DNA of 62,569 nucleotides, counting the filler, from Asterionella formosa (Eukaryota): assembly GCA_002256025.1 (NCBI GenBank). It is 28 parts of 28 records of this genome, joined end to end, with 100 filler letters (N's around TTAATTAATTAA, not from the genome) between each part and the next. Parts side by side here need not be neighbours in the genome. Positions count along the whole stretch, not along the records: positions 38,100 to 40,235 come from NKIB01000353.1; 27 more parts are not named here. One strand, given 5' to 3'. Below the pieces are notes generated by a model, which ran no database searches, was not told the origin of the DNA, and was given only the letters and a program-made list of their open reading frames with translations. Below, one piece after another: positions 1 to 62,198 of the stretch (position 1 is its first letter; each line of letters starts with the position of its first letter). The position numbers and the translations under genes were made by a program.

Positions 1-863
1 ACGGGAAAATGCCCCGATTGGCTTTTCTACGGCTTTCAGCCTAAGATTTATCCTCACCTGATTCAGTTTGGCAGGGTGGGGTGGGCCACGATTCGGACGC
101 CAAGGCAGAAACTAACCCCAAAAAGTGTCAAATGTGTCATGCTTGGATACAGCCATGACCACGCCGGTGATACCTACCGCATGTACAACGTTGCTACGAA
201 AAAGGTCTTCAACACAAGAGACCTTAAATGGGCTGACTGGCATGGAAATGCCAAACCGACAGCGGACATGGACGAATTCACCACAGACGGATCCGGTATA
301 GATGAGGAATTTGACACTCCTACTAAACCCTCCAACGCAATAGTACCTCCTGACGAACAAGGGGCTGATACGCAACTACCTACGAAACCGGACGATCCCA
401 GTACTCCCACGAGAGTGAGCTTTGCAGATTCCGTCGCAGGTGGTATGAGTACGAACGAGTATCGTACGAATTATGCTACGAAATCTACAAAGCTAGATCG
501 AGAAATGAATAGGCTATCAACAGGCCTTGTGACCTCGCCTACACCTACTCGTGCATGTACACGTCAGCAATCATCCGCAGCACGCACGCTTAATTTGGAT
601 GACAACACGAATGAAAACCTCCAAGAGCACGAACCTAACGAGGAAGCACATTCAACGAGCCTAGCTTCCGACCCACTGGAACCCAAGAGCTACAAGCAGG
701 CACTACTAAGTAACGAAAAAGACGAATGGACCAAGGCAATCAAAGCTGAAATTGAAAACTTCTACTCCCGCAAAGTGTGGAAGCTACATCCTCGTAAGAA
801 TCTAAATGGACGAAAGCCACTTGGAGCAAAATGGGTATTTAAAAAGAAGAATGAGCACGACAA
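1..863 (+). mobile_element. Ty1/copia pol fragment (integrase C-terminus, linker, start of RT), cut by an LTR insertion
   Basis: KLTPKSVKCVMLGYS..YRMYN..KVFNTRDLKW, then EPKSYKQAL..WTKAIKAEIENF..VWKL..KPLGAKWVFKKK. The frame runs into the LTR at 864. Confidence 0.9.
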
Positions 864-1284
864 TGTTAAAGTGAGCTCATCTACGTAGTTAGGACTCGGA
901 GTCAAACGAGTCAAACGATTCGAATGAGTCCACTTTGATGTACCAAGCTCTCATCAACCACACATTATACTTTGCTACTCCGAATATAATGAGCCGGACA
1001 ATATAAGCTATTTCAGAAGACCGATAGTTTGAAATGAATGATCATGGTTAAATACCTATGATCAGTAAGTGTGAGATAGACATGGGTCTATCTATGATTG
1101 TATGTTCCTAGAAATGCAAACAGCATTTGGAGAATAGTTCGTTTGTTTTGTTCAAACAGAACAACCTAAACTAGATTAGTAAACTCACAATAAGAATATA
1201 GAAACGGAAAGAGAAACGAACGTCTCTATCTATAGTCTTCTTTGTCTAACGATATAGATCTATACTAAAGGTAATACTTTAACA
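864..1284 (+). repeat. 5' LTR (421 bp) of a copia element
   Basis: TGTTAAAGT...ACTTTAACA 9-bp inverted ends; a gag ATG follows 29 bp later; a close reverse-complement copy lies at 61540-61965. Confidence 0.92.
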
Positions 1285-3804: not shown

Positions 3805-3900
<96 letters not shown>

Positions 3901-3954
3901 ACACCCCCCCCCCCCCCCCCCCCCCCCCCCCCATCCAGGACAATGAAGTATACG

Positions 3955-4290
3955 GTAGTGCTCCTTGTTTGACCGGGCACATGATGGGTTTGTTTGTGTG
4001 GCTGAGAGTGATGGTCTCGTCCTTCTCCCCGTTTTTTTGATCGCGGAATGTGATGCAGATAATGTCGGCCTGATGGAGCTAGTGCCGATTCCCAGTGATG
4101 TCTTGGTCTGCCTCGAAGAACTTCAAATCATGCACCCTGAGTTGTTTTGTACGTCGTTCGCCTTTGATGGTGAGGTTCCATCCTTTGAAGGTGCAATGTG
4201 TCAAATCCACAATGTTTTTCGTTATTGCGTAAACTTTCCTTGTTATATTCTTTACTTTGATATTTGAATTCATGGGAATTCACATGCATT
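3955..4290 (-). pseudogene. Degenerate tyrosine recombinase fragment (DIRS/Ngaro-like)
   Basis: GERRTKQLRVHDLKFF..*..ADIICITFRDQKNGEKDETIT..TNKPIMCPV; the T-F-x-x-Q-K-N and CPV motifs are present, with an internal stop. Confidence 0.6.
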
Positions 4291-11123: not shown

Positions 11124-11231
11124 NNNNNNNNNNNNNNNNNNNNNNNNNNNNNNNNNNNNNNNNNNNNTTAATTAATTAANNNNNNNNNNNNNNNNNNNNN
11201 NNNNNNNNNNNNNNNNNNNNNNNACTTTCCC

Positions 11232-23156: not shown

Positions 23157-24568
23157 CCACCTAAAACTGAGAGTCATATAAAGTTTACCCCATGTTTCGA
23201 CTTAAACTATTTTAGTCAAATTTCATGGTGACAACAAATCAAGTACATAGCTAAATTTAGAACAGGCTCTCCGCTTTCAATAGGTCTGTTTAATTAGTAG
23301 TGAAGCTTCATAATTCAAGAGATATGAAGTTTTTAAAGTTGATGATTATGGTCGTTTTGTATGACTATCAATACATATTTTTTACTACCTACCTGATGAC
23401 AATTTTATATTCAAATTCTGGTTTCGATTACCCTATTGTTCACTCTAAAGCTTTTTCCTGCCACAATATTATTTGTCCGTTGCATCATCTACCCATTTAT
23501 TATTAATTGTTTTCATTTTTTAAACCTTAAATAATAATGCGTTTGCCTTTTAACTCAAATATTATTTCAGTTTTTGTCTCAATAATCTTACTTTCATTCG
23601 TTTTGATGATGGTTTGATATAGATTTATATAGGGATTATTTACGTTTGTCACTAATTAGTGTTCTGCTTACATCAGGCTACTGGTTTGGTATTACTACTA
23701 TGACAGATGTCAGCCAAGCGAGAATTTTTTGTTTGATTGCTTGTTTGCTTCTCCACCTTCGCCTCCACCTTGCTCCACTTCCACTTCCTTGTTTCATCGC
23801 TTCCTTCATATTCCTCCTCTCAGCCAGCCACCCTTCATATTCTTCCTTGCCCGAAGCATGCAAGGCAGTGCGGCTGGAATGTTAATTTCCCCCTTATGTG
23901 TCAGCACAATTGTCAACTCCAGGCCAAGGGGGGAGAATAGGGGGGATGGTACTCGCAGCAAGAACCACAGCAGTTTTGATCTCTTCTGCTGGCGCCTGCT
24001 GGTCTCCTCGGTGTGAGGTCTCTCCCAAGCGGGTAAGTAGGGCTTGTCTTGTTTGTGGTACCGGGAAATCTCCGTTGCGTCGAAACCATCGCACAAGGAT
24101 CTTAATTTCAGGAACTGACAGCATATGCTCAGGCTTGTTGGCTGCGCGTAGAGCCATAAATTTGTTCCGTAGCTTCATAAATTCATGCTGCCTTTTGTTT
24201 TGACGCTCAGTAACCAGTTCCTCTGCCTTCTCTTTCTCACCAGTGCAGATGCAAGCACATTTGGTCCAAGAGCATGAATGCCAGCAGATGCCAATAGGCC
24301 GGCAGAGATTCTTTTCTTGTGGGAGTCGAGATGGGCTTGGGCAGTTTCCTTGCGTTGACGGGCTTGGGCATCAAGGTCGATTCCATTTCGAGCATCTTCA
24401 CGATTCCTGTATTCAACAACACGGTCAACTAGAGTGCCAGCATATCCATCTGACAGATTTAATTCTTGGGGAGAAGTAGCATTTCCAGTGTTGTTGTTTT
24501 GGGTGCCATTTTTCAATGTTGTCTTTGTAAGTTGGATTTCAGAGTGATTGAGAACATTATAGTTGAGT
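23157..24568 (-). mobile_element. pogo-like (Tc1/mariner superfamily) DNA transposon, 3' half with frameshifted transposase C-terminus
   Basis: TA|CCACCTAAAACTGAGAGTCATA terminus at 23157; minus-strand LNYNVLNHSEI..ELNLSDGYAGTLVD; the same end is at 28770 and 62199, always flanked by TA. Confidence 0.75.
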
Positions 24569-24668: not shown

Positions 24669-26808
24669 CAAGTTTCTATCTTGCAGCACTGAAGGTTTTC
24701 GCAGTGCATTTCATGTTCTCTCTGGAGAAATTGACATCCAAGAAAAACGCCTCATTGGAAAAGACAATGCTGCAATGCTTCGCTTCCAATCAACAGATCT
24801 TGGTGTAAATGCATTGTGTAACATCGCTCTCCGCAACTACAAGCGTCTACTTGACAATGGTCGCTGGATTGCTGGCTTAAATCTTCCCAAGTCTCAGCCA
24901 GACTCCCTACCCGCCGCTTTCCAGGCTTCTTCCGATGCTGCATATCAAGCCATTGTTGCAGAGTTGAAGTCCCTCCGCAACTCAATCAAACCTGGCACTG
25001 CAGTTACTGATGATTCTGTCACCTTGAAACTTTCTAATAGCATCTGCTATCATTGTGGAAAGAAAGGGCACATGAGAAACAATTGTCCAAGTCCTACTAA
25101 GTGGACACACCTTCCTCCACCTGCTGGTGCTCCAACAACAATCTTCCGCCATAATACAAATTTTTACTGGTGTACCAAGTGCAAACGTTGGGTCAAAACG
25201 CATACTGATGCTACTCACATTGCTCGTGATCCCACCACTGTTGCCATTTCACCCACTGTGAAATTCACTGAGGACACTAAGAGTCCTACAGCGAAGTTGG
25301 CTTGCGAAACCGTCTCTCAAAATGAAAACAATGCTCTTGTTCCTCAATTTACAAGTTTTGGATTTATTGCTACTTGTGATGACTCTCATGTCACTTGGTC
25401 GGTCGATAATAATTTGTCTTTGATTGTTAATAATGATTTTATATCGCCCCTTGGGCATAACACTCATGCAGATGCCCTCTGTTGGACTGGTGGTACTGTG
25501 CCAGACCTTTCCAACTCTACCACCATTACTATGCATGTCGCCTTCCGATCCTCATCTCACTGACTCGCACTTTCTTATTCCTTTGACTTTGTCCATTGAC
25601 TCATCATTGAACCCTACTACCCCTACTACCCCTTTTGTTACCAGTCCTATGAATCCGTCTAATTGTTCTCCCAAGGTTGGTGCTCCTTGCTTCTTTTGAC
25701 AGACTTACCAACAGCGATGCGTCTCTGTTGGTATTTTCCCAATGTTTGATATCTTTGGTTGTCGGCGTGTCACCGACATTAAATTACAGGGCTACCCGAC
25801 AGTATGGTTGATTTTTGGTGGGATCATGATTAACAGGTGGTTTACTGCAATGTTTCTTGGTGGCGCATATGATAACATGGTCACCTCGCATGGTCCTTGT
25901 TCTCCATTCTTGTTGGATATTGCTCCCTTCTTTCTTTTTTTCTTTCCTCCTAAACCTCCTGATCCTTCGCCTGGGTTACCTGGGATTTCTTTTTCCCTTT
26001 TTACCATCCCTTATTCTACTCCTTTTCTGTCTTCCTTACGCAAATTTCTCCCCACTGGTACACAAAGTATTCTACGTTCTACTCCTCCCATCATGGCCCC
26101 ATCACTCTTTGCCTACACCATCTTCCAAGATTCATTTCTTGATTTTTAACCTCTTTCTGTCATTCTTGACTCCATCTGCACTCCCGCCATCAACATTCTT
26201 CCCACATCCAAACCTTTGCCTTCATCCTTGTTTCGTGCTATTGAAATGGACCCCATCTCCTTGTTTGGTGGCCTTGAACAACATTTCACCGTCATTTGGG
26301 ACACTGGTGCCTCACGTCCTGTTTCTGCCTATTCCACCGATTTTGTTGGTCCCATTCTTCAACCCTCCATTCCCCTTCATCTTGGTGGCATTGCTTCTGG
26401 TCTCACAGTTGCTGGCATCGGCACTGTACAGTGGACTTTCCTTTCTGACTCTGGTCGCCTCTTGACCCTTCATCTTACTGCATATTATGTGCCTCAATGC
26501 AAACAACGCCTTTTATCTCCTCAACGTATCTTCGACAAAGAAAATGGCCATGTGGGAATTTTCGAGGTAACCGCTGATTGCGCACGCCTTGTAATTGATG
26601 GATCACCCACCTTGACTATTCCCTATGATCCCATAAACTCTCTTCCTACCAGTCATGGCATTCGTGCTTCATCTGTGTGCGACAAAGAAGCCTCCCTTAA
26701 TTTATGTGTCACAGACGAAACAAACCAAAACCTTACTGAGGCTCAAAAGGAATATCTTCACTGGCACTTCCGTCTTGGCCACCTCTGCTCAGACACCATT
26801 CAATTTCT
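24669..26808 (+). mobile_element. Copia gag-protease region, copy 1 (4-bp insertion at 25531; premature TAA at 26147-26149)
   Basis: CYHCGKKGHMRNNC, YWCTKCKRWVKTH, protease VIWDTGAS, RLLSPQ, NLTEAQKEYLHWHFRLGH. Confidence 0.9.
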
Positions 26809-30915: not shown

Positions 30916-31387
30916 GATTGAGTCGAACTACGCTCAGAACGAGAAGTCTCTGTCAATGATCAAATCTCGCATAGAGCGACCTCGATTGTTGGTCAAGCTC
31001 CGAGGTAAGTAAAGTGTGTTCGGTGTGATTCGGATGAGTAGCAAGCAATGTACCAGAGTCTACCAGAAGCTACACACCACAGTGGAGCTGCAAAACCCCT
31101 CCCACTCCTGGCGTGGTGGGCTGCGAACTCCGTCTATGATGGTCCTGGGGAAGACAATACTGTGCTACTTGGTACAGTCAGTACCTGGTGGTACTACCTG
31201 GTACCAGGGCAACAGCAAGTTGCGGTCATTTTCCTGAAACGTACAACGTGTGGCCGGATAGGGGCTTATTCAATCTTATAAAAAGAGNNNNNNNNNNNNN
31301 NNNNNNNNNNNNNNNNNNNNNNNNNNNNNNNTTAATTAATTAANNNNNNNNNNNNNNNNNNNNNNNNNNNNNNNNNNNNNNNNNNNN

Positions 31388-33526: not shown

Positions 33527-35863
33527 NNNNNNNNNNNNNNNNNNNNNNNNNNNNNNNNNNNNNNNNNNNNTTAATTAATTAANNNNNNNNNNNNNNNNNN
33601 NNNNNNNNNNNNNNNNNNNNNNNNNNTCTTCGTTTTCAAGTTATAGCATCAGTTACCGGTAGTTCACTTGGCCGAAGCTTATGGACCTGAAATACGAAGA
33701 TTGAATATTGAGAAGCTATTAATGCAAAATCGTTGTATTTCGGTATTCAGGAAATTTCATTGCCTCCTTATGGTCCTGAAGATTAAAGACTTAAATACCG
33801 GTAGTAGCGGCAGTACATCAACTCACATGTCAAATAACCTGATGTCATGATTTGATCTATAATTTCTACCAGTAGTCTAGTCTCATTTGTTGGTATATTG
33901 TTTGTAATTACAATGGAAATCATAGACACTCAAAATTACCATTGTCGTCATTGCTCTTGTTGGAATCAAAGGCCTTCACATTGGCCTGTCGCCTTTCTCC
34001 TTCTTCCCAACCACCTCAAGCAACGCCATATTGTCCCAATGGTGGTTCAAGCAAACGTTCGTGATCGTGATTGTGGTCATCGAACCTGATGTTGGTACGT
34101 ATCCTGAGGACTGATCTCATGGAATACCTTCTATTGTATTGTAGTTCTCAGCTAAGACAAGTATTGCACTCCTAATACTCACGTATCATTTCGTATCATC
34201 CATTGGACACATACAAATACTCACTACTGTTGGAAAGACCAAGAAGCGACGAAATGCCAGAAAATAAATGATGCTGAGCAGGAGGAAGCCTCCTTAATTG
34301 TGAAGGCGGTGGAGAGGCTCAAACTTCAACTGGAGCTTTATTAATAACCGGAACGTTCCCTCCTCACGAGGGCTGCTTGAGAGGGAGCTCAACGTTCATT
34401 TTCAAGCGCTTAGAGGTGGATCAGGAAGAGCGAAGAAGCATTCCAAAGACAATGCGGTATATCTGCAGGAGGAAGCCTCCTTAATTGTGCAGGCGGTGGA
34501 GAGGCTCAAACTTCAATTGGAGCAGGATCAGGAAAAAATTAATAATGTAATGCCATATTGGTAAATACCAATATAGAATAGCTTGTACTGATGTACCATG
34601 CGTCGTACCATCCATACAAGCAAATGCAATTATACTGCTGCTGTGGCCGCTGCTGTTGCTTGCCCATCAGGCAACATACAGTAAATTCTACACACGAGTG
34701 TACCACAGGACGGAATCCAGAATCCGTTCGTATGCCATCCTTGATGTCGAAATCGGCAGAACGGCGTGATAAATTATATTTTTAATTTTTATCATATGCA
34801 TTTATATATATGCCGGTATTATGTTCAAGGAGCATGGTGATATGGCACATTACCTGTAACCTGGTACCCTGCAAGTTGCGGTCATTTTGCCGAAAATGGA
34901 ACGCGGCGCCGGCAAGCACTCATATTTGACTCCCCGCTAATATTACTTGAGCATGTAGAAAACTTTAAAGGTTTCGCGCTGGCCAATATATTTCATTATT
35001 ATCAAAATCTAATTTTTAAGAATAATTTTCCGAACTTGCTACGAATTTTCCGAACTTGCTACGATTAGGGGGGTTTCCCCCCAATCACAATTTTGAGTTT
35101 CAAGACTCCTTATTCCAGAAATCTCCTAGTTTATATGCATTTCTATTTCGGTATAAGGCCCCGTCTTACGGCGCCCGAATTACGAAGATTCAGTCGCCCG
35201 GATACCTGTTGGGCGTTTAATCTTCGTATTTTCGTCCCTTGCGGACTAAATAACTCACAAATCCCCCCCCGATTACGAAGATTAATCTTCGTTTGCCCGA
35301 ATATTTCGAGGGTCATCCCCGATATTGACCCAATCTTCGTATTTTCTTGAACAATCTTCGTTTCCCGAAGATTAATCTTCGGGCAAACGATGATTGTCTC
35401 CACCAATCAGAATGGCGGAAACAATATATAATCGTCATCACATATACTGATGATATAGTATTCGATACTTCGATACTTCGATACTTCTATTGTAGTATTA
35501 TTGTCATTTTTATTACCGTACATCTAAGCCGCGAAATACGCCACTTTTCGAAATTTCGTCTACGTATGAGTGTTAATTATGTGGTACTTCACATGCATTA
35601 ATGCCACTCTTCACGTAAAAAAGATTACTTTTAACGGTTTCATGTGAAGTTTTAACTGTTTCATGTGAAGTTTTCACAATGAATTTTGAACGCGAGACTG
35701 AATTAGTTGATGTTTCAAATAATTCATTTGACTTTTCGAAATTTCGTCTACGTACGAGTGTTANNNNNNNNNNNNNNNNNNNNNNNNNNNNNNNNNNNNN
35801 NNNNNNNTTAATTAATTAANNNNNNNNNNNNNNNNNNNNNNNNNNNNNNNNNNNNNNNNNNNN

Positions 35864-37999
35864 CAAGTTTCTATCTTGCAGCACTGAAGGTTTTCGCAGT
35901 GCATTTCATGTTCTCTCTGGAGAAATTGACATCCAAGAAAAACGCCTCATTGGAAAAGACAATGCTGCAATGCTTCGCTTCCAATCAACAGATCTTGGTG
36001 TAAATGCATTGTGTAACATCGCTCTCCGCAACTACAAGCGTCTACTTGACAATGGTCGCTGGATTGCTGGCTTAAATCTTCCCAAGTCTCAGCCAGACTC
36101 CCTACCCGCCCCTTTCCAGGCTTCTTCCGATGCTGCATATCAAGCCATTGTTGCAGAGTTGAAGTCCCTCCGCAACTCAATCAAACCTGGCACTGCAGTT
36201 CCTGATGATTCTGTCACCTTGAAACTTTCTAATAGCATCTGCTATCATTGTGGAAAGAAAGGGCACATGAGAAACAATTGTCCAAGTCCCACTAAGTGGA
36301 CACACCTTCCTCCACCTGCTGGTGCTCCAACAACAATCTTCCGCCATAATACAAATTTTTACTGGTGTACCAAGTGCAAACGTTGGGTCAAAACGCATAC
36401 TGATGCTACTCACATTGCTCGTGATCCCAACACTGTTGCCATTTCACCCACTGTGAAATTCACTGAGGACACTAAGAGTCCTACAGCGAAGTTGGCTTGC
36501 GAAACCGTCTCTCAAAATGAAAACAATGCTCTTGTTCCTCAATTTACAAGTTTTGGATTTATTGCTACTTGTGATGACTCTCATGTCACTTGGTCGGTCG
36601 ATAATAATTTGTCTTTGATTGTTAATAATGATTTTATATCGCCCCTTGGGCATAACACTAATGCAGATGCCCTCTGTTGGACTGGTGGTACTGTGCCAGA
36701 ACTTTCCAACTCTACCACCATTAATATGTCGTCTTCCGACCCTCATCTCACTGACTCGCACTTTCTTGTTCCTTTGACTTTGTCCATTGACTCATCATTG
36801 AACCCTACTACCCCTACTACCCCTTTTGCTACCAGTCCTATGAATCCGTCTAATTGTTCTCCCAAGGTTGGTGCTCCTTGCTTCTTTTGACAGACTTACC
36901 AACAGCGATGCGTCTCTGTTGGTATTTTCCCAATGTTTGATATCTTTGGTTGTCGGCGTGTCACCGACATTAAATTACAGGGCTACCCAACAGTATGGTT
37001 GATTTTTGGTGGGATCATGATTAACATGTGGTTTACTGCAATGTTTCTTGGTGGCGCATATGATAACATGGTCACCTCGCATGGTCCTTGTTCTCCATTC
37101 TTGTTGGATATTGCTCCCTTCTTTCTTTTTTTCTTTCCTCCTAAACCTCCTGATCCTTCGCCTGGGTTACCTGGGATTTCTTTTTCCCTTTCTACCATCC
37201 CTTATTCTACTCCTTTTCTGTCTTCCTTACGCAAATTTCTCCCCACTGGTACACAAAGTATTCTACGTTCTACTCCTCCCATCATGGCCCCATCACTCTT
37301 TGCCTACACCATCTTCCAAGATTCATTTCTTGATTTTTCACCTTTTTCTGTCATTCTTGACTCCATCTGCACTCCCGCCATCAACATTCTTCCCACATCC
37401 AAACCTTTGCCTTCATCCTTCTTTCGTCCCATTGAAATGGACCCCATCTCCTTGTTTGGTGGCCTTGAACAACATTTCACCGTCATTTGGGACACTGGTG
37501 CCTCACGTCCTGTTTCTGCCTATTCCACCGATTTTGTTGGTCCCATTCTTCAACCCTCCATTCCCCTTCATCTTGGTGGCATTGCTTCTGGTCTCACAGT
37601 TGCTGGCATCGGCACTGTACAGTGGACTTTCCTTTCTGACTCTGGTCGCCTCTTGACCCTTCATCTTACTGCATATTATGTGCCTCAATGCAAACAACGC
37701 CTTTTATCTCCTCAACGTATCTTCGACAAAGAAAATGGCCATGTGGGAATTTTCGAGGTAACCGCTGATTGCGCACGCCTTGTAATTGATGGATCACCCA
37801 CCTTGACTATTCCCTATGATCCCATAAACTCTCTTCCTACCAGTCATGGCATTCGTGCTTCATCTGTGTGCGACAAAGAAGCCTCCCTTAATTTATGTGT
37901 CACAGACGAAACAAACCAAAACCTTACTGAGGCTCAAAAGGAATATCTTCACTGGCACTTCCGTCTTGGCCACCTCTGCTCAGACACCATTCAATTTCT
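35864..37999 (+). mobile_element. Copia gag-protease region, copy 2 (open except for the in-frame TGA at 36888-36890)
   Basis: Same motifs as copy 1; ORFs 35970-36890 and 36933 onward are in the same frame. Confidence 0.92.
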
Positions 38000-38099: not shown

Positions 38100-38729
38100 A
38101 TATTGGACCGAAATCTTCAGCATCAACATCCATTTCTACTTTCTCAATTGAAGTAGATGATGAACCTTTGTTTACCTGTTCCCTCAATCATCCAATTTTG
38201 GCAGACAATATTCAATATCCTCTGGAATATTACTCAATACATGATAGACAATTGCTGGATATACAATTGATTCTCAATCAAACAACTCATCTCATTCTCA
38301 ATCAACAAACCAAACACATCTGTTAAATTTTCCCTCTATCAATTTTCATCATATACATTTCATGTATTTTGTAAAGAATCCAGGAGATACTTGACGTATT
38401 GTTATTCCTACATCACTATCGAATCCTATGGTACAGTTACTTTTCAACAAACTATGCATACAACGGAACGAATTAATATCCATTACATCAAACCTTTTCA
38501 AAGGTAAAAGGTTTTCCCTTGGTGTGGGAGAGTGAGCGATCTTGCGCATCAATACAGATGTATATAGGGTTAGTGTTATATCATATATGTATCAGAACTC
38601 AATAATGAGAGAACTCGACTAACCCTCATTGTATACTTTGGTGTCGACTTGGAGAACGAGTTACACACAAGGATTAACAAATAAGCTCATATATTCAACA
38701 AATACTACTACTTCTAGTTAGATACTTCA
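38100..38729 (+). mobile_element. Decayed Ty3/gypsy 3' end with 3' LTR (38533-38729)
   Basis: Integrase-tail remnant (ERINIHYIKPF), PPT GTGGGAGAG, then a TGAGC...CTTCA LTR homologous to 43458-43653. Confidence 0.8.
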
Positions 38730-39217
38730 CCAGGTACCGGTATATATACCTGTATTTCATAGTATATTTCATACCCATATTATCATGTACTGTTGTACCT
38801 GGTACTGGTACCCGGTACATAGACTAGTAGAGGCTCTACGAAGTATATATACTGCCCCATGATCACAGACATATCCAGGACAAGAAGAATACTGGTAAAT
38901 CGTGCGCAAGTCACCTTACTGACGTACTTGCGTCGAGACAGTCTTTTGGAAGTCAAGGGATTCATTCTTGTGCTCATCATCCCTCTCGTTTGTTCTAAAT
39001 GCGACTCACTCGATCGCTTTTTAATGTTGGTTGGAACGACTTTTGCTTGTCTGGTTTTGACTGCTTGCTGACGGTACCAGAGCAAATTGTGGTAAAAAAG
39101 CAATTCAGCTCTGTTTTCCTGATAGTAAAAACCCTATTATTCCGCAACTCGAAAGGTATACCATACATTCCCTCTCCTGGTGCATAGATTTCCCGCAACT
39201 CAAGTGCCAACAATCAC

Positions 39218-40335: not shown

Positions 40336-42470
40336 CAAGTTTCTATCTTGCAGCACTGAAGGTTTTCGCAGTGCATTTCATGTTCTCTCTGGAGAAATTG
40401 ACATCCAAGAAAAACGCCTCATTGGAAAAGACAATGCTGCAATGCTTCGCTTCCAATCAACAAATCTTGGTGTAAATGCATTGTGTAACATCGCTCTCTG
40501 CAACTTCAAGCGTCTACTTGACAATGGTCACTGGATTGCTGGCTTAAATCTTCCCAAGTCTCATCCAGACTCCCTACCCGTCGCTTTCCAGGCTTCTTCC
40601 GATGCTGCATATCAAGCCATCGTTGCAGAGTTGAAGTCCCTCCGCAACTCAATCAAAACTGGCACTGCAGTTCCTGATGATTCTGTCACCTTGAAACTTC
40701 TAATAGCATCTGCTATCATTTTGGAAAGAAAGGGCACACGAGAAACAATTGTCCAAGTCCTACTAAGTGGACACACCTTCCTCCACCTGCTGGTGCTCCA
40801 ACAACAATCTTCCGCCATGATACAAATTTTTACTGGTGTACCAAGTGCAAACGTTGAGTCAAAACGCATACTGATGCTACTCACATTGCTCGTGATCCCA
40901 ACACTGTTGCCATTTCACCCACTGTGAAATTCACTGAGGACACTAAGAGTCCTACAGCGAAGTTGGCTTGCGAAACCGTCTCTCAAAATGAAAACAATGC
41001 TCTTGTTCCTCAATTTACAAGTTTTGGATTTATTGCTACTTGTGATGACTCTCATGTCACTTGGTCGGTCGATAGTAATTTGTCTTTGATTGTTAATAAT
41101 GAGTTTATATCGCCCCTTGGGCATAACACTCATGCAGATGCCCTCTGTTGGACTGGTGGTACTGTGCCAGACCTTTCCAACTCTACCACCATTACTATGT
41201 CGTCTTCTGATCCTCATCTCACTGACTCGCACTTTCTTGTTCCTTTGACTTTGTCCATTGACTTATCATTGAACCCTACTACCCCTACTACCCCTTTTGC
41301 TACCAGTCATATGAATCCGTCTAATTGTTCTCCCAAGGTTGGTGCTCCTTGCTTCTTTTGACAGACTTACCAACAGCGATTCGTCTCTGTTGGTATTTTC
41401 CCAATGTTTGATATCTTTGGTTGTCGGCGTGTCACCAACATTAAATTACAGGGCTACCCGACAGTATGGTTGATTTTTGGTGTGATCATGATTAACATGT
41501 GGTTTACTGCAATGTTTCTTGGTGGCGCATATGATAACATGGTCACCTCGCATGGTCCTTGTTCTCCATTCTTGTTGGATATTGCTCCCTTCTTTCTTTT
41601 TTTCTTTCCTCCTAAACCTCCTGATCCTTCGCCTGGGTTACCTGGGATTTCTTTTTCCCTTTCTACCATCCCTTATTCTACTCCTTTTCTGTCTTCCTTA
41701 TGCAAATTTCTCCCCACTGGTACACAAAGTATTCTACGTTCTACTCCTCCCATCATGGCCCCATCACTCTTTGCCTACACCATCTTCCAAGATTCATTTC
41801 TTGATTTTTCACCTCTTTCTGTCATTCTTGACTCCATCTGCACTCCCGCCATCAACATTCTTCCCACATCCAAACCTTTGCCTTCATCCTTCTTTCGTCC
41901 CATTGAAATGGACCCCATCTCCTTGTTTGGTGGCCTTGAACAACATTTCACCGTCATTTGGGACACTGGTGCCTCACGTCCTGTTTCTGCATATTCCACC
42001 GATTTTGTTGGTCCCATTCTTCAACCCTCCATTCCCCTTCATCTTGGTGGCATTGCTTCTGGTCTCACAGTTGCTGGCATCGGCACTGTACAGTGGACTT
42101 TCCTTTCTGACTCTGGTCGCCTCTTGACCCTTCATCTTACTGCATATTATGTGCCTCAATGCAAACAACGCCTTTTATCTCCTCAACGTATCTTCGACAA
42201 AGAAAATGGCCATGTGGGAATTTTCGAGGTAACCGCTGATTGCGCACGCCTTGTAATTGATGGATCACCCACCTTGACTATTCCCTATGATCCCATAAAC
42301 TCTCTTCCTACCAGTCATGGCATTCGTGCTTCATCTGTGTGCGACAAAGAAGCCTCCCTTAATTTATGTGTCACAGACGAAACAAACCAAAACCTTACTG
42401 AGGCTCAAAAGGAATATCTTCACTGGCACTTCCGTCTTGGCCACCTCTGCTCAGACACCATTCAATTTCT
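40336..42470 (+). mobile_element. Copia gag-protease region, copy 3 (gag frameshifted)
   Basis: Same boundaries and motifs as copies 1 and 2; 1-bp deletion near 40698. Confidence 0.9.
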
Positions 42471-42997: not shown

Positions 42998-43457
42998 TAT
43001 TTCGTTGCTTAGATTTATTAATTCACTGATTAGTATTTGGTCAATTAAGCAAATGAAGGTTTGACTGTTTGGACGACGATCTAGTCTGTGAAGTGACAAG
43101 AGAGGAACGGCTTGTGGCCTCCTTTGTTGTCGTCGAAATGGATACAAAATAAGGCGTCAGGTTCCAACAAGGACACATGTTGAATTTCCCTGCATCATCT
43201 ATCCTCCATGATCGAAAGAACCATCAAGCCAAAGTGCGTACCAGGTACCAGGTACTGGTACCCTGGTACCAGTATGTTAGTGTGTACAACCAGGTACCAG
43301 CAGTTCTTCCGCCCGTCAGTGATTGAATCGGAGGAATCATTTTTTTTTCGTACGATACCGGGGGTACCAGGGTACCAGTACCTGGTACCAGGTAACTGAG
43401 ATCTGAGCTGGCCAGATCTCAGTTCCAGGTACCGGTACCTGGTACCAGGGTACCTGG

Positions 43458-44705
43458 TGAAGTATCTAACTAGAAGTAGTAGTATTTGTTGAATATATGA
43501 GCTTATTAATTAATCCTTATGTATAACTCATTTCCTGAACTGACATCAAAAGTATAGAATGGGTGTTAGTCGAGTTCTCTCATTATTGAATTCCGATATA
43601 TTTGACATAACCCCAACTCTATATATATCTGTATCGATGTGCAGGATTGCTCACTCTCCCACACTTGAGGGAAAACCTTTTACCTATGAAAAGGTTTGAT
43701 ACGACGAATATTAATTCGTTCGGTAATATGCATAGTGCGTTGAAAAGTAACTGTACCATTGGCATGTACTTGAATAATAGTATAAGGACCTCGTCCACGA
43801 TCATCCAAAGTAGTAGGATTATCCAATAATATTAAAATCTCGTCACCCACTTTGTAATCATAAGATCGACGACGGAAATTTGCACGACGTAAACGTTCGT
43901 CAATTATCACCTGTCGACGTTGATGTATTAATTGTAAATCTGTAATCAAAGGAATATTTAATATCATATCACGTTGGAAAACCCATGCTCCTGGTGAAAT
44001 ACGTAATATACTATGAATAGTAGCTCGAGCTGCATATGACGCAGCTGCAAAACATGTATCCACAATATTTTGGGCTTGAAATTCATTGATTGGAGGATGA
44101 GCCTTTAACATAACTCGTAGACTATTGCTGATAGATTGATGGAAACGTTCACAGATAGCATTTGCTTGTGGATTCTTTACTGTGGTAGTCACATCTTTGA
44201 TTCCATTCAATACTAACATGTGTAAGAAAGGAGCACCAGTAAATTCACCTCCATTGTCATGTATACAACGTTCTGGACGGGGATATCTGGCTAACCAATC
44301 ATTTTCAAATTTCATTGCAATATATTCTGATGTTTTATTGATGATACGTGAAATTTCTGCTAAATTGGTGACTGTGTCAATACAAGTTAGAGCACGAAAT
44401 TCAATCGTTTGAGCAGCCACTGTTATCTTCCATGGACCAATTAGATCTACTGCGACTTCTGACCATGGTAATAATAATGCATTCCTGGGTGGAAGTTCAC
44501 CAAAACCAGTACCAGGTAATTTTGTACGTTGACATGCTTCACATACTCTTACAATATGTTCCACTCTTGTTTTTAATATAGGGTGATAAAAATGTGTAGC
44601 AATTGTAGCATTTAATCTTGTCATACCCACATGAGCTAACATCTGATGATACCAATTAATAATAGGATCCAATAATGATGTAGGAATAGCAATACGCCAA
44701 GTATC
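43458..44705 (-). mobile_element. Ty3/gypsy integrase (43680-44705), PPT and 196-bp 3' LTR (43458-43653)
   Basis: HHCC (YHQMLAH..CEACQ); DDE (VDLIGPW, HDNGGEF, NAICERFH); GPY motif; GTGGGAGAG|TGAGC..CTTCA. Confidence 0.92.
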
Positions 44706-47039: not shown

Positions 47040-48337
47040 TTTTTTTTCAGAACACACCATTTTGTCTGAAGAAGACCAAATGCCATTTCTATTCTTATCC
47101 TTAGCTGTGAAAGGAAAAAGTTAAATGTATCCTGTGTTGGATCATCACGTTGTGAGCCAACAAAGGGAACAAGCATTACATCAGACAATGTGTAAGCTGC
47201 ATCGCCGACCAGATAAAAACCTGTGTTGAATGCTGCAACTTGATCGAAAATGGAAGTTTTTTCAAAAGCTACTTGGTCACTGCATTTTCCCGGTGCAATT
47301 ACACCAAAATAAATAAATCTTGAGTCAGCATCACAAACAGCCTGGACATTGATTCCATAAGTCATGTAGTGACCGGAAAAAAATGAACCAGGGTTGTTGC
47401 CACTTTCAACTATAGTCGGGCGGTTGATGGTGGCAAGGAAGCCGTCAATAGCACCAACACATCCTCTCATCACGCCCTCTGAGCTTTTGCATTCAAAGCT
47501 GGAAGCCAATTTGATAAATTCTTCTTTTTCTTTTGGAAAAATAATTTCGAGTTCTTCACAGTTTAGTACAGCATCAATGAACAAATCACGACATCGATAA
47601 AGTGAAGCAATGCTACAACCGTAGGCATGACGAATGTCGATGTAACTGCCACCAGCCAGCCATCGCAAACCAATGGCTACCACAATTTCGGGAATTATGG
47701 GCTCAGAAGTGCCACATTTGGAATAATTCCCTGCAATCTGAATTTCCAGCATGGAGGTGAGTTTTTTGAATGCTCTGTGTGACATTCTGTATGTCTTCTC
47801 GAAAGCAATCTCGTGATTGAGTTTCTCGACATGTGATTGCCAGGAGATTCTTTCGTGGTGCCACTTGTGCCTTCGTTGTCGTCGTCGTTCAGATGACTGA
47901 AGCTGCCGTTTACAGCGTCGCCTTTGTCGTTTGGATGAGTGTTCTTTTTCCTCTGCTTCCTTAGTTAAATGACAGAGGAAGAAGAAATCAAGATCACTAC
48001 TGTCATCGTCATTATCATCAAGTAAATCAAATGGCGACGACATGATTCATGCAAATGTGTGTTTTTAATATTATATTTAGTTTCCCGGTAATTATATTTT
48101 GTTGTTGCTTGATATCAAGACCATCATTATATTCTGGAGGGATATACACATGATCTTCGCCAGCCTGTTGCCGTTGAAGATTCATTTTACTCCATGATAC
48201 AATGTGATCACAAATTAGTGATACAGTGACACTTTTGGAATGAATGAAATTCAGTTCAAATCGAGTTACCGTTGCTGATACATTTTCAAAAAAATTCAAA
48301 TTCCGTGATACACGAAAAAAAATGATAAGAACGACCC
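47040..48337 (-). mobile_element. PIF/Harbinger transposon: DDE_Tnp_4 transposase (48043 to 47040, truncated) and candidate left end GGGTCGTTC next to TAA/TTA
   Basis: FEKTYRMS, LRWLAGGSY, VGAIDG, INVQAVCD, VGDAAY, RIRIEMAFGLL..KW. Confidence 0.9.
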
Positions 48338-55872: not shown

Positions 55873-55972
55873 NNNNNNNNNNNNNNNNNNNNNNNNNNNN
55901 NNNNNNNNNNNNNNNNTTAATTAATTAANNNNNNNNNNNNNNNNNNNNNNNNNNNNNNNNNNNNNNNNNNNN

Positions 55973-57322
55973 CGCTCTGTCAGTGTATCTGGTAGGTAGC
56001 CCTGTAGGTGTGGCTCAAAAACGGCCCATAGTAGTGGCCGTGCTAGCGTCAATGCTACTTCACGTGGGAACTGCAGGAGAATATTTGGAGCAACAGTTTC
56101 CAAAAGCCAATCATCAGTCACACCGCAACTCTCTTTGAGCACATACTTACATGCTCCTCCAATACACAGGGCTGCTGCCACCTTGGCATCAGGATATGGA
56201 AGATCAACATCAATGTAAGTGTCTACTTGCTTTGTGTGTCGTTTCCAGCGACCGCGGAAATCTATATCATCGCGGGAGCATCCATTCCTTCGTGCATGGG
56301 TTGAGGGATATTTACGAAGGCTGTGTGTTCCAATTAATCCAATGATGCCAAGCTTGTTGAACTCACTACCTGACCAAACTTCATCTCGCAGGATACGATA
56401 TGCCTTATTTTTTGCATTCCGAGGATTATCGGTTCCAAGAGGAAAAACCCAGTCATTCTCCAATGAGCTGCCATTGGACATTCCTTCTGTCTCGAGGTGG
56501 ATTGCCAAGTTAAGTAGTACACAATACTGTGGGTCCATTGCACCCATGAGGAATTGATCTGGTGCATCCCTCTCATCCTTGACATTCTTGGACCAACACA
56601 GCTGACATATCAGGGTAAAAGGAAAACGAAGATTTGGTTTCAAGTTTTCCTTCTTCAATTGGACACAATCGTCGATCCGGCCGACCATGTGGAATTGGAA
56701 GGAACATAGAGAAACCATCTGGTAGCGGCGGATACTGTCTTTGCATCGTCGAAGTGCATTTATTGTGTTGGTTAATTCTTGGGCTTCAAGTGGACGACGT
56801 GCTGCTGATGCTTTTCCCTGCTTGCGGACCTCCTTTTTCTTTACAGCCTTGATTAGGTCAAGAACAAGCACAGATCTGGTTGGATTTCCACAGTTGATCA
56901 TGACATTCCAAGTCGAGAGCCGGAGTGGCATGAAGTACTAGGACAATGCCTTCTTGTAATATTCCAATGAGGTTGATCTACCATATGTTGGATTGTCGTT
57001 TTGGCTTGGGTTTGGTTTACCATAAGTCCATCCATTTTATATGTGTTCAGGCTTGATGTCTGCTAGCTGCTCTAGACTAAATTCATAGTCAGTAGCAAAT
57101 TCTATCCCATTTTTGTAGGTCATCATCGCCAATAGAATCCTCCTGTATCGATGGCATTGCAAAGGTTGGTTCATTCCTATCAACATGGTCTGCCTAGTTT
57201 TGCTTTAATTTAAAATATATATGATGCATATGTATATAAAAGTCTATATTACCTGTAAAAAGTCTATTCAGGAAGCCTTCTATAGATATTGGTGTGTGGG
57301 CAACCATCTACCGGTAGTATGG
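55973..57322 (-). mobile_element. CryptonS-type tyrosine-recombinase DNA transposon (YR core open, N-terminus disrupted)
   Basis: Catalytic set GRIDD, WSKN, THSLRK, GRW, DTYID; TATGG at the homology boundary (57318-57322). Confidence 0.85.
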
Positions 57323-61539: not shown

Positions 61540-61965
61540 TGTTAAAGTATTACCTTTTGTATAGATCTATATCGTTAGACAAAGAAGACTATAGATAGAG
61601 ACGTTCGTTTCTCTTTCCGTTTCTATATTCTTATTGTGAGTTTACTAATCTAGTTTAGGTTGTTCTGTTTGAACAAACAAACGAACTTTTCTCCAAATGC
61701 TGTTTGCATTTCTAGATACATACAATCATAGATAGACCCATGTCTATCTCACACTTACTGATCATAGGTTTTTAACCATGATCATTCATTTCAAACTATC
61801 GGTCTTCCGAAATAGCTTATATTGTCCGGCTCATTATAGTCGGAGTAACAAGGTATAATGTGTGGTTGATGAGAGCTTGGTACATCAAAGTGGACTCATT
61901 CGAATCGTTTGACTCGTTAGACTCAGAGTCATAACTACGTACCGGTAGATGAGCTCACTTTAACA
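61540..61965 (-). mobile_element. Solo LTR of the copia family at 864-1284, flanked by a TCTCAA direct repeat
   Basis: Reverse-complement match to 864-1284; TCTCAA at 61534-61539 and 61966-61971. Confidence 0.92.
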
Positions 61966-62198
61966 TCTCAATACCAGCCAAACCACGCGCTAAAATATGG
62001 TACCAGGTACCAGTACATGCATATGATGGCCACATATATATAATGTGAATAAGGCACGATAATTGTGATTTAGTACCTGGTAGTTGAATGAATTGATACA
62101 TAACGCGATCTTCTGTATGTACAAACGACGACATTATAGAGTTGTGCTCCTAGCATGTATGAAATTTACAGGTATACACACCAGTTACAGTGATGATA

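Follow-up and report, generated by a model that had tools for sequence, protein, structure and literature searches.

The stretch of DNA analysed here (the window; 62,569 nucleotides, filler included) comes from the alga Asterionella formosa (NCBI GenBank assembly GCA_002256025.1). It joins about 28 contigs of approximately 2.1 kb each through N44-TTAATTAATTAA-N44 spacers, across which distances are meaningless. The window holds two copies, A and B, of an LTR (long terminal repeat) retrotransposon of Ty3/gypsy type, each of which abuts the pentamer CCAGG next to a TA. Copy A sits on contig G000:C353 and the flank of copy B matches C355; because the copies lie on different contigs, their nearness in the window carries no meaning. 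Throughout the genome, insertions of this family are concentrated at a palindromic word with the core CCWGG (W, A or T), and it is next to certain that this sequence targeting is real.

As the initial annotation had it, the LTR of copy A ends at 38729 on the plus strand and is followed by CCAGGTACCGGTA, and that of copy B ends at 43458 on the minus strand and is followed by CCAGGTACCCTGGTA. The two flanks are unrelated past CCAGGTACC, and a purine tract precedes each LTR. The LTRs are identical in 167 of 198 aligned columns, and the objection that both copies derive from a common ancestral insertion fails, since they represent different subfamilies with different flanks. The internal remnant of copy A comprises two blocks (80.6% and 83.8% identical) that map to positions 3822–4122 and 5017–5320 of L078 (L-numbers are locus labels used for matched stretches); approximately 0.9 kb of the integrase is deleted, giving a non-autonomous form. 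All 40 scored genome matches to LTR A, among 955 candidates, are 100% identical to it.

L078 is a whole but broken copy of 5.1 kb, with RVT_1, RT_RNaseH and rve matches in gypsy order and a protease frame, identified by eye, that has no Pfam match. The domain order PR-RT-RH-IN (protease, reverse transcriptase, ribonuclease H, integrase) between two LTRs places the element in Ty3/gypsy (Metaviridae), and further traits of the group are present: TG...CA LTRs, a purine tract, a target duplication within 4–6 bp and an HHCC finger. The integrase of copy B contains an H2C2 zinc finger and a D-D(35)-E core (D87, D150 and E186; spacing 35), and stops about 15 bases upstream of the purine tract. Its short tail carries what is presumably a GPY motif, spotted by eye. 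No Pfam chromo match was obtained at the integrase end of copy B at E 0.01, and no env-like third frame follows the integrase in copy B or in L078. Among the 120 homologues listed, an integrase of Nitzschia inconspicua (52% identical) is the sole eukaryote-named entry; together with the algal, freshwater and lake origin of the sequencing runs that carry the sequence, it points to a freshwater diatom as the probable host. Directly after the 5′ LTR of L078 (434–465) stands a short palindrome that is not a tRNA-type primer site; an 8-base LTR complement is seen in this copy only.

The initial annotation placed CCAGG outside the LTR, as a 5-bp target duplication centred in TA-CCWGG-TA, and every test run has backed this reading. 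The 5′ LTR continues with CTTTGAAT (199 matches), and neither with CCAGG nor with TGG. Solo LTRs were collected with a pattern that demanded a left-hand CCWGG and a right-hand CC. The two flanking pentamers are identical in 14 of these 15 loci (7 with A, 7 with T at the centre), or in 12 of 13 once two pairs that are copies of one insertion are corrected for. TA stands on the left in all 15, though the pattern did not require it, and two whole elements have CCAGG at both sides. Inside the element, the bases adjoining the LTR are G and C, so that on-target junctions alone fit two boundaries. The off-target copies decide between them: their flanks (17 left, 22 right) have seven words in common at 5 bp and two at 3 bp, with no shared word at 4, 6 or 7 bp, an excess at 5 bp with p = 0.002 against column shuffles. 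In addition, the base next to the LTR end is A, G or T rather than C in 26 of 475 cases, and some 5′ ends come after T. The LTR therefore has TG...CA ends and the stagger is 5 bp. GTGA...TCAC ends with a 3-bp duplication are ruled out by the off-target matches at 5 bp and by the bases other than C.

The 23-base 3′ end of the LTR has 475 exact matches in the genome, 199 of which run into the element interior. CCWGGTA follows 179 of the 276 others, a set that still includes some interior variants, against a background half-site rate of 4.7e-4 per strand position (156/328,540 in 26 stretches). This corresponds to an enrichment of approximately 1,400-fold and disposes of the objection that other copies have random flanks. 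The first 100 listed LTR ends comprise 39 interior, one unreadable and 60 outer junctions; 44 of the latter are exact, 6 have one mismatch, 5 have two and 5 at least four (of 7 positions), such that 50/60 are exact or within one mismatch. Junctions unselected by flank, with duplicates removed, are exact in 28/38 (3′) and 9/13 (5′) cases, and their matrix is a symmetric 13-bp palindrome, GGTA-CCWGG-TACC, used in a fixed register. The youngest copies, those with an LTR identical to that of copy A, are exact in 20/23. The word TACCWGGTA itself is abundant, with 26,886 genome sites compared with 902 for a reversed control. Some gypsy copies (L080, L036 and L037) share an array with another copy and lie one unit or a few units away from it. 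An LTR-free stretch, L194:3190–3340, matches the flanks of two gypsy insertions (L026 and L065) about 65 bp apart, one on target and one off.

The family discriminates against CCGG. TA-CCGG-TA falls only a little short of TA-CCWGG-TA in frequency (121 versus 143 in 301 kb), and this CCGG unit stands 47-fold above second-order Markov expectation, but it is used in only 1 of 125 junctions. A Copia LTR from the window (10 matches) served as a further control, and 0 of its 11 distinct outer junctions fall on the word. A Copia family of the window (863–1284 and 61540–61967; L281, L282) shows apparent 6-bp duplications, longer than the usual 5, the 6-mers being identical in L281 and differing by one mismatch in L282.

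Two other types of element use the word in registers other than that of the gypsy family: a Harbinger-like miniature inverted-repeat transposable element (MITE) and a TA-duplicating family. The MITE is 88 bp long and has 192 matches. Among its 29 whole copies, 14 have direct 3-bp repeats, one has inverted repeats and 14 have neither; CTG and CAG duplications both occur in one orientation, and exact halves of TAC-CWG-GTA form the flank in 10 cases on the left and 14 on the right. A 3-bp target duplication is a PIF/Harbinger trait. The flanks being direct rather than inverted repeats, the MITE uses the centre of the word and does not make the word; it was accordingly rejected as a CCWG-tipped scar maker. 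A 2.07-kb element with terminal inverted repeats (TIRs), at L163:6634–8705, has direct CTG/CCTGG repeats in the word and is a possible fourth user. The window also contains a frame matching DDE_Tnp_4, of Harbinger type (47040–48046, minus strand).

Repeat copies offer a substrate of known prior state in which the origin of the word can be followed. L032 carries TA-CCAGG-TA, L033 TA-CCTGG-TA, and L041 and L125 TA-CCGG-TA, at positions where other LTR copies have one TA. No adjoining unit was available as a template in these four; L130 and L132 hold stacked units. The footprint form, a TA plus filler at a single TA, is present, and new scar-like units have arisen, with a polarity that is firm for L032, L033 and L125 (many copies lack the unit). 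A survey of 807 kb yielded 942 indel contexts of 3–12 nt, of uncertain polarity in some cases: 175 tandem duplications, 377 indels with a duplicated pair of bases and 390 without. The duplicated pair is TA in 143 indels and AT in 54. The fillers between two TAs include C/G (38), GC (14), CCGG (13), CCAG/CTGG (4) and CCWGG (3); TA-C/G-TA and TA-GC-TA, the commonest scar-like indels, occur in many repeat copies.

The initial annotation suggested that the family uses transposon scars as landing pads. One part of this stands, namely that the word can arise as a footprint-like insertion at TA. As to the other, no clean insertion in a new scar was found, and the family may use these sites because its integrase happens to favour the palindrome rather than because they are scars. 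L194 and L226 are LTR-free homologues that hold the word, but they have different array units. An allele of the window site without the insertion is absent from the assembly, and mapping of reads from four runs to one solo-LTR stretch was swamped by repeats and gave no readable empty site. In run X5, loose read ends terminate in the word, with an agreement of only 0.43 in this repeat-swamped mapping. The reading that the family lands on scars is plausible and partly supported.

DDE_1 matches number at least 100 in the genome, which also has TA-flanked, pogo-like TIR families tipped CCG and CAG, and the fillers CCGG, CCG and CWG agree with the tips of resident pogo families. For CCWGG, the one candidate is a CCA-tipped family, element A, with a partial misfit. 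Whole copies of element A are TA-flanked on both sides, and its ends are preceded by GGTA in 30/50 cases, compared with 1/16 and 0/15 for the CCG families. Its transposase gave no Pfam match (DDE_1 was tested) and a negative profile comparison; Atlas neighbours with DDE_1 at 0.86–0.88 are a lead only for the pogo class. A CCAG-tipped TA element was not found in 807 kb, and a search with the PF13358 profile found no Tc1-type transposase. Beside one solo LTR lies an 832-bp TA-flanked MITE with CTCCCTC tips (L042:1709–2545), which is taken to be Stowaway-like.

Table 1. Positions in the window of the two gypsy copies and of other features bearing on the target word.
Feature	Position	Strand	Basis or remark
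Internal remnant, copy A	38100..38520	+	Contig start; pre-integrase sequence fused to integrase tail
Polypurine tract, copy A	38521..38532	+	Purine-rich run right before 3′ LTR; named by position
3′ LTR, copy A (197 bp, TG...CA)	38533..38729	+	Ends fixed from genome-wide junctions
Right copy of 5-bp target duplication CCAGG, copy A	38730..38734	+	Left partner on another contig
Outer TA and next scar-like unit, TA-CCGG-TA	38735..38742	.	Sequence
Array of CC..GG units separated by TA, flanking copy B	43363..43452	.	Sequence
Right copy of 5-bp target duplication CCAGG, copy B	43453..43457	-	Sequence
3′ LTR, copy B (196 bp, TG...CA)	43458..43653	-	Alignment to LTR A
Polypurine tract, copy B	43654..43665	-	Sequence
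Integrase frame, copy B, open to contig end	43683..44705	-	PF17921, E 1.9e-10
End of element A (TA-duplicating TIR family, CCA tips)	23157..23177	+	Adjoins CCAGG array; candidate maker
Further element A ends	28770 and 62199	- and +	Same family
End of a word-using family that makes 3-bp CWG duplications	31216..31235	+	Second end at 34872
TA-CCGG-TA unit in Copia LTR, scar-type indel	61940..61947	.	Related copies have one TA

Elsewhere in the window, three Copia-like pieces (24669–26808, 35864–37999 and 40336–42470) are 98–99% identical and unrelated to the gypsy targeting. A frame at 55927–56937 (minus strand) has no Pfam match and presumably encodes a tyrosine recombinase. The contig at 11224–13365 is GC-rich (approximately 61% in the 12–14 kb bin) and probably a contaminant; its frames are taken to be bacterial GatA/GatB.

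The junctions show that this Ty3/gypsy family, which has been amplified recently, inserts into GGTA-CCWGG-TACC with a stagger of 5 bp and joins its CA ends between the A and C of TACC on both strands. Direct readout of the word by a two-fold symmetric integrase complex is the preferred mechanism and the most likely one. The word would be supplied largely by cut-and-paste elements, with TA-duplicating elements of Tc1/mariner type leaving TA-filler-TA upon excision. In CCG-tipped pogo families, CCGG could result when two CCG 3′ overhangs pair at their CG. CCWGG may similarly come from a family tipped CCA or CCAG, if two CCA overhangs are joined across one A:A mismatch to yield CC(A/T)GG; insertions of the filler are observed, and the maker is a candidate only. 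The observed preference of element A for GG-TA may then stack scars into arrays. If scars keep being made in this way, the retrotransposon would have tens of thousands of renewable landing sites.

The joint claim, that the integrase reads the word directly and that the word is mainly of scar origin, is considered somewhat better than an even proposition. Several observations weigh against it. Approximately one-quarter to one-third of junctions are off-target, and in three solo-like copies (L038, L076 and L125) the two flanks differ. Standing counts of CCWGG and CCGG are similar, but CCGG outnumbers CCWGG among new units, and no clean case emerged when 77 on-target flanks were screened for paralogues that keep a plain TA. 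The scars expected from the CCAC tip of element A are rare (CCACG 4, CCACGG 0, CCATGG 1), and CCAGGG/CCCTGG is common (19), pointing to a CCAG tip. Beyond the 9-mer, CC is present at 49/60 on-target half-sites compared with 150/286 in the background (p = 2e-5), which fits a 13-bp readout or an attraction to arrays alike. Finally, three unrelated families on one word are compatible with a shared host factor.

The last two points lead to host tethering, in which a protein or chromatin state marks GGTACC-rich arrays and the integrase sets the register only locally. Array context is indeed commoner at on-target than at background sites. The available part of PMC3597505 describes a similar word, TACCGGTA, as over-represented as a Phytophthora promoter motif, and tethering is given as the basis of Ty1, Ty3 and Ty5 targeting in the accessible text of PMC5408687. 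Within arrays, however, CCWGG units are chosen and adjacent CCGG units skipped, off-target sites show a mismatch gradient, and the integrase tail stops at the purine tract with no chromodomain match. Tethering is accordingly regarded as unlikely, though it is the strongest of the rivals.

Another account accepts the targeting but treats the word as mostly a motif of promoters or simple repeats that slippage or template switching has spread, with scars adding a minority of sites. The three clean new CCWGG units among 942 contexts, the failure to find a CCAG-tipped TA element and the 175 pure tandem duplications would all fit. Conversely, L032 and L033 gained a whole TA-CCWGG-TA at a TA without an adjacent template unit, CCAGG and CCTGG are mixed in arrays, unlike a slippage product, and the shorter fillers match resident pogo tips. 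This account is held to be improbable, more so than tethering.

A third possibility, that insertion is loose and that selection or assembly bias retains copies in harmless arrays, is largely refuted and has very little chance of being correct. The 15,436-contig assembly does break inside the gypsy repeat and the arrays do lie in non-coding DNA, but selection is unable to give a register that is precise to a single base pair, 20 of the 23 copies whose LTRs are identical are exact, and the Copia control has no such bias. Capture of cDNA in the break of an excising DNA transposon, or a GTGA...TCAC LTR with a 3-bp duplication, suits the on-target junctions taken alone but is refuted by the LTR ends with a next base other than C, by the 5-bp agreement of off-target flanks and by the central W, which agrees on both sides as a duplication demands.

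According to the part of PMC3276498 that is available, LTR elements and TIR elements generally have palindromic target motifs, with strong ones, of 4-bp core, in the gypsy and Idefix clades of Drosophila. One review (PMC5408687, available text) restricts sequence-specific integration to the errantiviruses. The errantiviruses (gypsy, ZAM and Idefix clades) likewise belong to Ty3/gypsy, prefer a palindromic target and have a duplication of fixed length; in the accessible portions of the same two sources, their targets are the 4-bp TATA, ATAT and CGCG, and distinctive LTR ends are attributed to them. The present family differs in its TG...CA ends, its 5-bp duplication and its 9–13-bp GC-centred word, exact in approximately two-thirds of copies. 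It works like the errantiviruses but stands outside them by target, LTR ends and env, and is not chromovirus-like, as no chromodomain match ends its integrase. The diatom GyDi elements of Maumus et al. have the same domain order, and the available text of that paper (PMC2806351) gives no target preference for them; nor does that of 10.1101/2025.10.24.684338 for diatom gypsy elements.

Zebrafish Harbinger3_DR shows high specificity for a palindrome, AAACACCWGGTCTTT, whose core is CCWGG (PMC3016246, in the part available). It is a DNA transposon with other flanks around the core, and a closer model for the 88-bp MITE than for the gypsy element. Harbinger3_DR makes a 3-bp duplication. The Sleeping Beauty footprint, TA-C(A/T)G-TA, has a TA duplication around 2–4 terminal bases with a central A or T (PMC6943129, accessible text); the footprint-like fillers here are CCGG and CCWGG, with approximately 27,000 sites for one form, and are stacked in arrays. 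Ty1, Ty3 and Ty5, LTR elements of compact genomes, reach tolerated sites as does the present family, but they target regions via host factors, whereas here sequence and register are fixed. Tf1 is another element targeted by tethering. A literature search, outside which lay Repbase, supplements and most subscription papers, retrieved no diatom gypsy element with this target and no retrotransposon that targets footprints. A metagenome scan for relatives gave eight loci with one readable outer junction (L197; CCTGG, then TG), too few for a test. One metagenome contig ends inside the LTR (L195:2655–2723), and its end is presumably sequencing adapter.

Insect errantiviruses, with their 4-bp cores, have been described as the only elements with strict sequence choice by an LTR integrase; here, an algal TG...CA element shows such choice for a 9–13-bp palindrome in approximately two-thirds of insertions. 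With hundreds of on- and off-target sites in one genome, the family is a natural case for how integrases read target DNA. Excision may mint scars at places that tolerate insertion, and the gypsy integrase and the Harbinger-like family may both have evolved to read the scar as a tag of a safe site, a suggestion that is offered tentatively and is more doubtful than not. One superfamily would then write the target of two others. If the word is a scar, the target sites come from other mobile elements, which would offer an explanation, open to testing, of the way in which transposons reach tolerated sites and of their nesting in compact genomes.
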